In this document: positions 199 through 4,195 of the stretch, piece by piece
Layout of the letters: every line of letters starts with the position of its first letter
Numbering within the stretch: the first letter of the stretch is position 1
Assembly: GCA_965223545.1 (NCBI GenBank)
Contig: OZ245006.1
Span: 4,224,001 to 4,288,000, forward strand
Origin: Planctomycetota bacterium
Lineage (GTDB): Bacteria; Planctomycetota; UBA1135; UBA2386
Direction: 5' to 3'
Length of the DNA stretch: 64,000 nucleotides
Made by a program: the position numbers and the translations under genes
The notes under the pieces: generated by a model
Databases searched by the model: none
What the model was told of the DNA's origin: nothing
The model's input: only the letters and a program-made list of their open reading frames with translations

Positions 199-371
199 GC
201 CTCCGGCGCCTCGAATCTTCGAGCTTCGACAACATTCTCGAGGCGACGTCGCTGCCATGGCGACAACGCCGCCGCGCCGGAGGCTCGGAGAGACAGTGCC
301 TCCTGGCTCAGCGCGGCGGCGGATGGGTCGGACCTTCCAAACCGCGCCGGCAAGAGCGGCATCCGAGTTTG
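190..371 (+). repeat. Family-A hairpin repeat, divergent copy 1, plus linker; interrupted at 371/372 by the IS110
   Basis: gcgcggtgagcc...ggctcagcgcggc ends. The linker ggcggatgggtcggaccttcca...ccggcaagagcggcatccgagtttg resembles 2456-2500 and 3744-3767. Confidence 0.8.
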
Positions 372-386
372 ATATCTCCTAAGTCA

Positions 387-392
387 TGTCAA
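387..392 (-). promoter_or_regulatory. Outward-facing -35 box (TTGACA) in the IS right end; pairs with TATGTG (2309-2304) after circularisation
   Basis: The minus-strand circle junction reads TTGACA-tgacttaggagatat|gg-TATGTG, a 17-nt spacer with TGn directly before the -10. Confidence 0.75.
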
Positions 393-434
393 GGGGTTTT
401 CGCTGGGGCTCGACATCGCGTGTGCACGGCTTGT

Positions 435-1937
435 TCAGGACTCTTCCACAAGACCAGGGAAGTGTTCTTGCATGAGATCACCGATCGGGTGAGGTTGACG
501 TGGGGATTCCACGGCCAGGCCTGTGGCGTCCATTGGGCGGCCACTCAAGTCCCTCGTCGTCGGAGTCCCCACTCGTCCCTGTCGCCGTTGGTCGCGCTCA
601 TGCCGCTGTGGCGCGACGATGCTGCGCGTGAACTTGGCTGCGATGAGCGCGCGCGCGGCAACCTTCGTGAGCTCGTTGCCGTCGGCGTCTCGCAGGACGT
701 AGCGGACTTGCGTCGACGCCGGCTTGTCATCGGCGCGCTGGCTGTCGCGACGCTTCAGGAGGGCGTAGACGCGGCGCGCCATCTTGCCAGCCAATGCGAT
801 GAGGATGAGGTTGTGGTGATCACCTGCGGCGTAGCGGCGAGCGTAGTACGCCGCGAAATCCGGATCCCACTGGCGAGCGACGTCAGCTGCTAGGTAGAGG
901 TACTTCTTGAGTACTCGTTGGCCGGTTTTGGTGATTGGCATCGAGGGGTCGCTCATGCCCGTCTGCTTCCGGCGTGGACACAGTCCGCAGTAGCTCACGA
1001 ACTTCTTGCCGTTCGAGAACCGCGCGATGTCGCCTACCAAGGCTTCGATGGCCGCAGCGATCGTGGGACCGACGCCGCGCAGTTGCTCGAGTGTTCGGTC
1101 AGGATCGACGCCCAGGTAGAGCTTCTTGATCTTTGCGTCGAGCTTGCGAACGTCCGTGTTCTTGCGCTCGATCTCATCCAGCTCGTACACCACATCCTCT
1201 TGGATGGCCTCGTAGTCGAACGGCATCTGCCCCGCAGCTCGCAGCTCAGCGTAGTACTCGGCGGCCTGTCGGCAGGACTCGAGCACGCGGTCGACCAAGC
1301 ACGGGTCATGCGTTCCCTTGGATCGCTTCGTCAAGAAGCGCTCCAAGCGACTCTTCCCAAGGCCGACCGCTTTCACCGGATCGACGTAGCGCCGCAGAAA
1401 CCCCATCTTAGCGGCACTGAACTTCTCTGCCCCCAAGGCCTTCATGAGGCTGGGATTCGCCAGTACCAGTATCGCGTGCACACGACGCTTGTGGTCGCTG
1501 AGCTCGCGCGCCAACCGCTCACGCCGCTTCACGAGTCGACGGATCGTCGTCTCGTCGGCAGTTGGAACACGCAGCTGGTGGACGCCCTTTGGATCCATCT
1601 GCGGCAGACGCGCAGCGGCCTCGGCGTCTACTACGTCGGTTTTGGTGTGCTTGCTATAGAACTTCCGCAGGTCGCTCAGCTTCTGTGGTTTGCTCACGTA
1701 GATCTGGAACCCTGCGGCGTTCACGTGCGCCGCGATGGGCAGCCACGCCAACCCCGTTGGTTCCATCACGAAGCTCACCGGACCCTCGGCACCTTCCTGT
1801 GCACGGCGCAGCAGAAGGTCAATACCCTCACGGCTGTTCTCGACTGAAAACGGTCTGCCCCGAGACTTCGCACCATCCAGAACGACGGCTCGGTGCTTGC
1901 TCCTCAAGCCGAGATCCAATCCAACGAATCGATTCAT
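435..1937 (-). CDS. IS110-family DEDD transposase/recombinase (500 aa)
   Basis: N-terminal RuvC-like motifs FVGLDLG, MEPTG and KTDVVDA. C-terminal Transposase_20 region LRGVGPTIAAAI...FVSYCGLCP...KTGQRVLKKYLYLAA...ALAGKMARRVYALL. GGAGG RBS upstream. Confidence 0.97.
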   Translation of the reverse strand: MNRFVGLDLGLRSKHRAVVLDGAKSRGRPFSVENSREGIDLLLRRAQEGAEGPVSFVMEPTGLAWLPIAAHVNAAGFQIYVSKPQKLSDLRKFYSKHTKTDVVDAEAAARLPQMDPKGVHQLRVPTADETTIRRLVKRRERLARELSDHKRRVHAILVLANPSLMKALGAEKFSAAKMGFLRRYVDPVKAVGLGKSRLERFLTKRSKGTHDPCLVDRVLESCRQAAEYYAELRAAGQMPFDYEAIQEDVVYELDEIERKNTDVRKLDAKIKKLYLGVDPDRTLEQLRGVGPTIAAAIEALVGDIARFSNGKKFVSYCGLCPRRKQTGMSDPSMPITKTGQRVLKKYLYLAADVARQWDPDFAAYYARRYAAGDHHNLILIALAGKMARRVYALLKRRDSQRADDKPASTQVRYVLRDADGNELTKVAARALIAAKFTRSIVAPQRHERDQRRQGRVGTPTTRDLSGRPMDATGLAVESPRQPHPIGDLMQEHFPGLVEES

Positions 1938-2009
1938 GTCCCCTCCATGTTCAACGAGTGAGTGTCGACGAGAGGACTCTCCCTACCCGCGCAGTCCGCC
2001 TGAGGAGGC

Positions 2010-2297
2010 GAGTCGCCAAAACGGTTCGTGTTTCGGGGCCGTGATTTCTCACGCCGCCAATCTCCTAAATCGGGTCCCCCACGCGGGAGGAGAGTCGCAG
2101 AACCAAATGAGGGGCCGCTCGAAGCGCCACCATTGCGGCAGATCGCGAAACCTCTCCGTCGCACGCCGGGGGACCCTAAGCTCTCTTGCGGCCGATGACC
2201 AGACTCCCGACACGACTCCTGCGGCTGCACCATCGCGCGAGTCTTCCACACCGCTACGGCGCGACGGGTGTGGAGAACTCTAGCTTCGCAGATCATG
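2010..2297 (-). ncRNA. Putative IS110 bridge RNA: 5' hairpin, target-binding loop and donor-binding loop (ends approximate)
   Basis: Lies in the 374-nt non-coding left end. Two analogous stem-loops (UGGnGGCG...CGGCCCC) are flanked by segments matching the target (2133-2139, 2101-2107) and the element ends (2060-2068, 2020-2031). Closing stem 2072-2080/2168-2176. 5' hairpin at about 2246-2273. Confidence 0.8.
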
Positions 2298-2311
2298 GAA
2301 CCACACATACC

Positions 2312-2526
2312 GTTGCGGCCCCGGCCGCGCTGAGCCTCGGGGGCCGAGAATGTTCGAGCGGCAACAACCTTTCGGAAGGCCCGTCGTCGCCGGGACTTCG
2401 ATACCGCAACTCCCGGAGGCTCGAAGACAACACTGGCCTCTGGGCTCAGCGCGGCGGCGGATGGGTTCGGCCTTCCAAGCTGCTCCGGCGAGAGCGGTTG
2501 GTTGCGGCCGTGGCCGCGCTGAGCTC
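2312..2526 (+). repeat. Family-A hairpin repeat copy 2 (core 2324-2455), linker and truncated start of the next unit
   Basis: 13-bp terminal IR gccgcgctgagcc/ggctcagcgcggc. Interior close to 3779-3912. Confidence 0.9.
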
Positions 2527-2859: not shown

Positions 2860-3378
2860 ATGAGCAAGCGCATTTTCGTCGGCAACCTGAATTACGACAC
2901 CACCGAGGACAACTTGGCCGCCGCCTTCGAGGGGCAGGGCTACAAGTTGGGCAGCTGTCGGATCGTCTTGGACCGTGATACCGGCCGCTCGCGCGGCTTC
3001 GCCTTCGTCGAGGTCGCCGAGGGCGTCGATGCCGACGCCGCCATGCAGGCGTTGGACGGCCACGAAGTCGACGGTCGTCCGCTCCGCGTCAACGAGGCCA
3101 CCGAACGTCCGCGCCGCGAGCGCCCCGCCTTCGGCGGTGGTGGTGGCGGCGGCGGCGGTTACGGCGGCGGCGGGGGCGGCTACGGCGGCGGCGGGGGTGG
3201 CTACGGCGGCGGCCGGCGCGGTGGTGACCGCGGTCGGCGCGGCGGCGGCCATGGCGACCGCGGTCGTCGTGGCGGCGGCGGTGGCTTCGGCGGCGGCGGT
3301 GGCGGTGGCGGCGGAGGCGGCGGTGGTCGTGGCCGCCGCGGCCGCGACGAGCACTACGACAGCCGCGAGGAGTGGTGA
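2860..3378 (+). CDS. RRM RNA-binding protein with Gly/Arg-rich tail
   Basis: RNP2 IFVGNL, RNP1 RGFAFVEV, LRVNEA, then a GGGGYGGG/RGG tail. Confidence 0.95.
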   Translation: MSKRIFVGNLNYDTTEDNLAAAFEGQGYKLGSCRIVLDRDTGRSRGFAFVEVAEGVDADAAMQALDGHEVDGRPLRVNEATERPRRERPAFGGGGGGGGGYGGGGGGYGGGGGGYGGGRRGGDRGRRGGGHGDRGRRGGGGGFGGGGGGGGGGGGGRGRRGRDEHYDSREEW

Positions 3379-3758: not shown

Positions 3759-4195
3759 CCGAGTTTGGTTGCGGCCCCGGCCGCGCTGAGCCTCAGGGTC
3801 CGCAAGTCTTCGCGCGGCAACAACCTTTCGGAAGGCTCGATGCCGCTGGAACTTCGACAACGCAGCTCCCGGAGGCTCGAAGACGACACTGGCCTCTGGG
3901 CTCAGCGCGGCCGCCGGCGACCGCGGGACCCGCGACCGACGCTCGGGTCGCGGAATGCTCCGTGTTTGGTTGCGCCCCCGGCCGCGGTGAGCCTCAGGGT
4001 CCGCAAGTCTTCGCGCGGCGACAACCTTTCGGAAGGCTCGATGCCGCTGGAACTTCGATACCGCAGCTCCCGGAGGCTCGAAGACAACACTGGCCTCTGG
4101 GCTCAGCGCGGCCGCCGGCGACCGCGGGATCCGCGACCGACGCTCGGGTCGCGGAATGCTCCGTGTTTGGTTGCGCCCCCGGCCGCGGTGAGCGT
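3759..4195 (+). repeat. Family-A tandem array with a 201-bp period (cores 3779-3912 and 3980-4113, partial third unit)
   Basis: tttggttgcg recurs at 3764, 3965 and 4166. Units are nearly identical. Linker hairpin ccgcgacc...ggtcgcgg. Confidence 0.95.

Follow-up and report, generated by a model that had tools for sequence, protein, structure and literature searches.

A stretch of 64,000 nucleotides of a Planctomycetota bacterium genome (assembly GCA_965223545.1, contig OZ245006.1, positions 4,224,001 to 4,288,000; hereafter, the window) carries at 372..2311, on its minus strand, an insertion sequence (IS) element of the IS110 group, 1,940 bp in length, in a host genome of 8.1 Mb and 70% GC. 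That it is an active, RNA-guided IS110 element we consider practically certain. The pattern of similarities between its predicted guide RNA, its ends and its targets suggests, in addition, that its recombination is relaxed with respect to the crossover core and dictated by the top strand. Taken as a whole, with its variant features included, the explanation of the element as an intact and recently active bridge recombinase system of this kind appears to us likely.

The genome contains 11 full-length copies of the element, 100% identical and all located on contig C1 (BLASTN), each of them flanked by GCCGCAAC on the left and by CAAA on the right. These flanks bear out the check that had been proposed in an earlier reading of the window, made from the sequence alone (the sequence-only reading). 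The boundaries given there are also exact, as the excision of 372..2311 restores a 36-nt sequence identical to that at 3759-3794 (10 nt to the left and 27 nt to the right of the join). The left noncoding end comprises 374 nt (1938..2311, minus strand) and encodes the predicted bridge RNA, while the right one comprises 63 nt (372..434, minus strand) and terminates in donor positions 1-9. Between the 40-nt ends, no inverted match exceeds 5 nt. Thus, as in the IS110 group, and differently from IS1111, a long noncoding end lies upstream of the gene, and terminal or long sub-terminal inverted repeats are absent. In the best-matching sequencing run, possibly that of the source sample, the element was assembled as a single piece at a depth of 301 vs. 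21-25 for adjacent unique sequence. In a run from another study, the right junction is crossed at the same base, and all eight differences fall in the repeat flank. No close relatives were found among 400 other genomes of the host phylum at E ≤ 1e-40, and plasmid matches are 27-31% identical in the 15 of 18 that were listed.

The recombinase gene of the element (435..1937, minus strand), preceded by a Shine-Dalgarno-like GGAGG (1942..1946, minus strand), encodes a protein of 500 aa. As is characteristic of the IS110 group, it comprises a RuvC-like DEDD domain (residues 5-162; PF01548, E = 1.9e-24) and a Tnp domain (residues 281-366; PF02371, E = 4e-21), followed by a C-terminal extension of about 100 aa (397-500). 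The whole-protein model NF033542 is matched at 208.7 bits vs. the cut-off of 140. A homologue search yielded 107 proteins from 8,000 scored candidates, of which 96 near-full-length ones were aligned. Of the DEDD residues (D8, E59, D101, and D104), D101 and D104 are invariant in this alignment, D8 is present in 92/96 proteins, and E59 in 88/96 (D in 7). The AF2 model has a mean predicted local distance difference test (pLDDT) score of 89.3, and its best Foldseek matches are ISCro4 and IS621, which in sequence, too, are the nearest relatives of solved structure. Within the C-terminal extension, conservation and good modelling are seen at residues 410-436; the extension has no named match or cluster in the Atlas.

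In the left end, a predicted bridge RNA scaffold can be assigned to the region 2000..2180 (minus strand). An iterated left-end profile matched 67 of 88 sequences, our own element counted; the remaining loci were 8 from genomes and 79 from metagenomes (the best 80 of 161 relatives). The consensus fold of 17 close sequences contains two internal loops, with compensatory changes in 19 of 29 pairs. Four candidate guides, all on the minus strand, can be read in the left end. The left target guide (2132..2140) is identical to target positions 2-8, and its U at position 9 would form a wobble pair with the G of the bottom strand. The right target guide together with the handshake bases (2100..2108) complements the target over positions 7-13, a G facing C9. 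The left donor guide (2058..2066) is identical to donor positions 1-7 (AGGAGAT of the right end), positions 8-9 being unmatched, and the right donor guide (2019..2026) pairs with donor positions 10-12. The core part of the latter is Watson-Crick complementary to target A7-A8-C9 and makes merely a G-T wobble with donor T9; its donor-perfect version does not occur in the left end. When the left end was shuffled 20,000 times, the four guide words never came up jointly. At the sequence level, the element has a predicted bridge RNA with two loops and four guides that fit its target and donor, as expected of the IS110 group. An Rfam search of the left end gave nothing significant, and the folding of the 374-nt left end alone was uninformative (z = -0.98). 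A second GCCGCAA word (2192-2186) was considered as the left target guide and rejected, as the family alignment places this guide at 2140-2132.

When the ends of related elements were picked by end motifs alone, with guides excluded, both ends could be placed at 30 loci, which gave 25 distinct guide sets. In these sets, the left target guide matches its own target at 5.36 of 7 positions vs. 2.81 in shuffled pairs, and the right target guide at 3.6 of 4 vs. 1.18. All four guides match their own DNA better than in every one of 5,000 permutations, which indicates that, across relatives, each predicted guide varies in step with its own target or donor. On the donor side the margins are small, owing to the conservation of the ends. 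Together with the uniform flanks and the NF033542 match, the target-matching guides uphold the earlier claim of an intact IS110 element programmed against a host repeat. The claim of likeness to IS621 stands with respect to the IS110 bridge type, but not with respect to a shared core and a catalytic serine, and the guides had not been read at that time.

The crossover of the element joins bases that differ. Numbered as in IS621, the target has C6 A7 A8 C9 before the cut and C10 after it, and the donor A6 T7 A8 T9 before the cut and G10 after it. The target core is thus AC and the donor core AT, no core is duplicated, and no base is shared at the junction in any of the 11 copies, which differs from the identical core dinucleotide with T at position 9 that flanks both ends of IS621/ISCro4-type elements. 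A one-base (C) duplicated core was rejected, since the one-C target occurs once vs. 95 times for the two-C version; it is also excluded by the right target guide, which itself encodes both C's. For the comparison of position 9 in the 25 related sets, L078 and L090 were dropped as having mis-picked ends and L017 was moved by one base, which left 23 elements. Base 9 is shared by target and donor in 14 of them (CT, GT, AT, or AC cores) and differs in 9. Both right-hand guides are Watson-Crick complementary to target base 9 in 23/23 elements, so that in the discordant ones they follow the target in 9/9 cases and the donor in 0/9. Seven of these have C-targets with G guides, and two, L001 and L013, have G-targets with C in both guides, which gives a true C-T mismatch to the T donor. 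The junctions share no bases in 8 of the 9 discordant elements, and the two shared bases of L023 lie to the right of the cut. At position 7, agreement with the donor is seen for the target-loop guide in 14/18 cases, and agreement with the target for the donor-loop guide in 11/18; the guide register is supported by this IS621-like handshake pattern of positions 6-7.

The discordant elements belong to one clade, with left ends starting with GG (quick tree: 11 rows, SH-aLRT 100; L001 is misplaced in it, its protein having been extracted in a wrong frame). Nine of the 12 members of this clade keep the mismatch, with protein identities of 41-56% to the recombinase of our element, and matched cores are present in the same clade in L012 and L022 (AC) and in L020 (AT). 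The top-strand outcome is observed at positions 6-9 in 11/11 copies, in agreement with the top-strand-dominant integration reported for CazIS110 (10.1101/2025.10.25.684509). In two distant relatives, L044 and L052, whose right ends were not found, the left junction ends with CC and the right donor guide has G, which may represent a second origin of a non-T base 9.

The address of the element in the host genome is a 12-mer, comprising target positions 2-9 (2312..2319, minus strand) and 10-13 (368..371, minus strand). It occurs at 106 sites of the pre-insertion genome (95 vacant and 11 occupied) vs. about 1.4 expected under a second-order Markov model, and 102 of these sites are in the head of a repeat resembling repetitive extragenic palindromes (REP), while 4 are outside it. 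The 11 occupied sites do not differ from one another at positions 2-13, as would fit the guides, and positions 1 and 14, which are unmatched by guides, vary; a specific target common to all copies is a feature of the IS110 group. The host repeat module is mostly of 88 or 91 bp, with inverted arms, and often tandem at a period of 195 or 201 bp; 134 uninterrupted modules form 94 clusters. The module interrupted in the window (307..2334, i.e., 307-371 and 2312-2334) is of 88 bp, with terminal inverted arms. Repeat heads are occupied in 9/100 cases if their 12-mer is perfect and in 0/61 if it is imperfect (p = 0.014, Fisher test). The upstream repeat arm is missing from two of the copies (at C1 5,137,697 and 7,273,463), one being intergenic with no repeat on either side and the other directly following an apparent stop codon, which indicates that the 12-mer, rather than the complete repeat, serves as the address. 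Non-repeat 12-mers are occupied in 2/4 cases vs. 9/102 for the repeat ones (p = 0.053). The sequence-only reading had stressed a vacant perfect target 1.4 kb away; it is present (3764..3775, minus strand, crossover between 3768 and 3767) but was given too much weight, being an ordinary one of 95 such sites. The landing in a REP-like repeat as such is already known biology.

The joining of the element ends in silico creates a promoter-like site, directed into the 374-nt left end, with TTGACA of the right end (392-387; feature 387..392, minus strand), a 17-nt spacer and TATGTG (2309-2304; feature 2304..2309, minus strand) with an extended TGn motif. TGn would arise only in the circle, from donor T9 (window 372) and G10 (window 2311), and no promoter-like site was found in the linear window. 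This promoter had been predicted in the sequence-only reading; its sequence, spacing, TGn and direction are as described there, but its -10 hexamer is weak, as it matches TATAAT at 3/6 positions and is without the last T. The spacing between the -35 hexamer and the -10 hexamer of the far end is of 17 nt in 24 of 25 elements, in a search whose pattern permitted 16-18. TGn is formed with T9 in 10 of the 12 elements whose left ends start with GG, and the final T of the -10 hexamer is retained in only 2 of them; of the 11 left ends starting with TG, none form TGn and all 11 retain this T. Probably, then, the promoter holds donor T9 in place while target base 9 is released. No end-to-start circle joint was found in three contig sets, although contigs drop rare variants, and one raw RNA run had no reads on the stretch. 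A 371-to-2312 joint in X6 was not used, as its side of 23 nt could derive from any vacant copy of the repeat.

At the position of the catalytic Ser241 of IS621, the recombinase of our element has Thr326 (codon at 960..962, minus strand; assigned from the alignment, with the residue counted by eye), with QTG replacing ESG. The hydroxyl nucleophile in the loop of the SG motif, a serine in IS621/ISCro4-type enzymes, may here be provided by Thr326, which is followed by Gly327. In the 96 aligned homologues, this column contains Ser in 53 and Thr in 43, and never a third residue; on a FastTree tree, Ser and Thr have replaced each other 11 times. In 17 of the 43 Thr-type proteins, there is no Ser within -4 to +6. 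The covalent intermediate is probably a phosphothreonine formed via Thr326. Thr-type motifs occur in other long IS110 proteins. A coupling of Thr to the mismatched core is not supported, since the Ser-type L017-L019 are mismatched and the Thr-type L012, L020, L022, and L029 are matched.

By analogy to IS621 and CazIS110, the element would be copied or excised to a circle, the joined ends of which would form a sigma-70-type promoter driving the synthesis of the two-loop bridge RNA from the left end. The recombinase and this RNA would pair with the donor (AGGAGATAT followed by GGT) and the target (GCCGCAAC followed by CAAA), and the top strands would be cleaved and joined after position 9. With donor and target different at this position, no core would be duplicated. 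To this scheme we add that position 9 of the donor loop may act as a third handshake base, weakly paired or wobbling before the exchange and Watson-Crick paired after it, that donor T9 has probably been retained because it supplies the T of the extended -10, and that the covalent intermediate would be the above phosphothreonine. The chances seem evenly balanced that a clade of long IS110 recombinases has been freed from the matched-core rule, with a fixed T-ending donor and with T, C, or G accepted at target position 9 on insertion (a true mismatch between guide and donor included), many of its members acting via phosphothreonine. Such an escape could be explained by the joining of only the top strands and by the conversion of donor-loop position 9 to a handshake base.

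Several observations weigh against this explanation. The permutation and Fisher tests ignore kinship, and most relatives are single metagenomic contigs without an empty site. The nine discordant elements, falling in one clade, represent about two to three independent changes, and before the dropping and moving of rows the count of 9/9 stood at 9/10. At position 8, the guides follow the donor (4/4) and not the target, and biased repair could equally yield a uniform top-strand outcome. The end-picking patterns contained promoter-like letters, so that the conservation of the promoter is partly built in, and L012 and L022, with their matched AC core, lose TGn, which means that T9 is not essential. 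In our own recombinase, Ser329 lies three residues past Thr326, and the loop containing both is poorly modelled (pLDDT 59-74).

The element could be an ordinary IS621-like one, in which the core difference is a G-T wobble tolerated after a shift of target, Thr and the mismatch are neutral, and the enzyme would do as well or better on matched cores. G indeed pairs with both C9 and T9 in our element, matched cores occur in the same clade, and target duplication has been stated not to be characteristic of IS110/IS1111, ISEc21 inserting without one (PMC11187229). Nevertheless, the true C-T mismatch of L001 and L013 goes beyond wobble, and the mismatch persists in most of the diverged members of the clade, owing to which we regard this explanation as rather unlikely. 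A somewhat smaller probability can be given to a spread mainly by direct top-strand junction transfer with little use of the circle, in which the donor-loop guide always meets the target-derived base 9. This pathway, reported for CazIS110 (10.1101/2025.10.25.684509), explains both the tracking of the target by the right donor guide and the identical junctions of the 11 copies, but the fixed spacing between the -35 hexamer and the far-end -10 hexamer implies selection on the joined form. It is compatible with core-relaxed, top-strand-dictated recombination, from which it differs solely in the intermediate.

It is improbable that the change of Ser to Thr has left the enzyme dead or weakened, with its copies moved in trans by another IS110 of the genome, or that Ser329 is the nucleophile. 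While S241 is essential in IS621 (PMC11208158), Ser329 is close by, and the genome has two other IS110 families (23 and 4 Pfam matches), the four-copy family aligns with our element over only 70 aa at 34% (four weak tblastn matches) and the 23-copy one gave no tblastn match. Moreover, the frequency of Thr among the homologues, the lack of a third residue and the Thr-type proteins devoid of a nearby Ser speak against it. Least probable of all, we can hardly credit that the circle is not a simple end-to-end join and that its position 9 (or 8-9) comes from the left, target-derived junction, which would make the mismatch only apparent. This would account for the Watson-Crick complementarity of the right donor guide to the target-derived base in all 23 elements, but reinsertion should then leave C at position 9 of the right junction, where T is found in 11/11 copies, and the TGn motif would be destroyed.

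The core-relaxed, top-strand-dictated system proposed here shares with IS621 of E. coli and with ISCro4/IS622 (PMC11208160, PMC11208158, PMC13626964, 10.1101/2025.05.14.653916) the DEDD and Tnp fold, the REP-like target, the long left end and, as predicted features, the two-loop bridge RNA, the junction promoter and the crossover after position 9, and with IS621 also the handshake covariation at positions 6-7. Unlike IS621, with which it has about 20% identity, it encodes a protein of 500 aa vs. about 326 aa, has an AC vs. AT core instead of CT/CT, a left donor guide that ends at position 7, and Thr at the position of Ser241. In IS621, target T9 is described as "almost invariant", and the bottom-strand cut is placed so that positions 6-9 end mismatched and are left to repair (PMC11208158), while in its reprogramming only the first core base was changed, in donor and target together (PMC11208160). 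The sites of Perry et al. were selected for an identical CT or GT core (10.1101/2025.05.14.653916), positions 8-9 are regarded by Hiraizumi 2026 as invariant and paired in every case (PMC13626964), and orthogonal cores serve to block cross-reaction (10.64898/2026.04.29.721476).

ISPpu10 and ISPpu9 of Pseudomonas putida (10.64898/2026.03.19.712850, PMC12288879) are similarly IS110-group elements inserting in REP and form junction circles, but their cores are matched (CT and AG, respectively). The target stem-loop of ISPpu10 acts as an extra gate (10.64898/2026.03.19.712850); given the two copies without the upstream arm, such a gate is here at most partial. The seekRNA system of ISEc21 (PMC11187229), compared by description only, resembles ours in the upstream noncoding region, the junction promoter and insertion without duplication. 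The latter is already stated there for IS110/IS1111 generally, the reported duplications being ascribed to the drawing of ends; the passages available mention neither non-identical crossover bases nor guides following the target at position 9. CazIS110-1 (10.1101/2025.10.25.684509) has about 10 genomic copies, its top-strand-dominant copy-out/paste-in would give uniform junctions, and the word "core" does not occur in the available text. In the accessible main texts of the IS110 literature, we met with neither a natural system whose donor and target differ at position 9 nor guides tracking the target there, although supplements may tabulate such cases. Nor was a threonine nucleophile described in these main texts, and the word "threonine" is absent from the four IS110 papers checked for it (PMC11208160, 10.64898/2026.08.14.744561, 10.64898/2026.04.29.721476, and 10.1101/2024.06.21.599552).

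The ends of the element also contain motifs resembling DnaA boxes. An inverted pair of such 9-mers (2277-2269 and 2250-2242; feature 2242..2277, minus strand), with one mismatch each, is in the 5' part of the left end, and a third one is at 450-442. In 18 close relatives, a group chosen after the motif had been seen, there are 9 perfect boxes vs. 0.1 in shuffles, with the pair at fixed offsets and further boxes near the right end at multiples of about 11 nt. The basal unwinding system of oriC consists of a DnaA box (up to 2 mismatches), a spacer of 0-16 nt and at least 3 NAN trios (PMC8287927), a pattern which our own element does not have. The left ends of L014, L017, L026, L030, and L032 have TAG repeats arranged like the oriC unwinding module. 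A strict box with at least 2 TAG trios is present in 5 of 50 distinct related left ends vs. 0.02 expected, and the loose rule of PMC8287927 is satisfied by 6/50 vs. 2.0 expected (maximum 6). A box in the host dnaA-dnaN gap matches one box of the element at 8/9 positions; this gap (C1 4,017,033-4,017,519), beside the cumulative GC-skew minimum at 4,016,777, is the probable replication origin. It is a doubtful, though conceivable, proposal that the box/trio-like module of the left end and the phased right-end boxes recruit host DnaA to the circle junction, either to replicate the circle or to time transcription. The pair may equally represent an RNA hairpin or a recombinase site. Nothing relevant on IS110 elements with DnaA boxes was found in literature listings.

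Three other repeat heads in the window (2508-2497, 3976-3965, and 4177-4166) are vacant and have one mismatch to the 12-mer, and an RRM-domain protein with a long glycine/arginine-rich tail is encoded between two repeat arrays (2860-3378, plus strand). The word GCCGCAAC followed by C is also targeted by the Ser-type relatives L017 and L018 (54-55% protein identity, from other samples), at approximately L017:1152-1160 and L018:193-201, and the flank of L018 resembles the same REP-like hairpin. The second IS110 family of the genome (about 1.5 kb, three copies compared: C1 ~614,400, 5,087,200, and 6,849,550; the fourth of its Pfam matches lies at 7,064,730) inserts in the spacer of the same repeat arrays, apparently with a matched AG core (by eye), and one of its copies directly adjoins a copy of the element studied here. 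The third family has 23 copies on C1, in at least two sequence variants. A gene similar to those of REP-associated tyrosine transposases (RAYT) beside the repeat family was sought and rejected, as of 14 Y1_Tnp matches the nearest to a repeat head is 6.8 kb away. At 12 places on C1, not close to the repeats, there is a multi-copy family that weakly resembles Y1_Tnp (26-27 bits).

A natural multi-copy element which joins AC with AT, and the relatives of which use GC, GG, and TG targets, raises the question whether core identity is a chemical need or a habit of IS621. It also bears on whether transposition proceeds via a Holliday junction or by top strands only, which is an open question (10.64898/2026.08.31.748434, 10.1101/2025.10.25.684509). 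Published bridge-editing designs need a donor and a target that share a core ending in T. If our explanation is true, this would be a natural bridge system with no requirement for donor-target homology, which would widen the range of targetable sites, and the threonine nucleophile would be a new detail of chemistry for the IS110 family.

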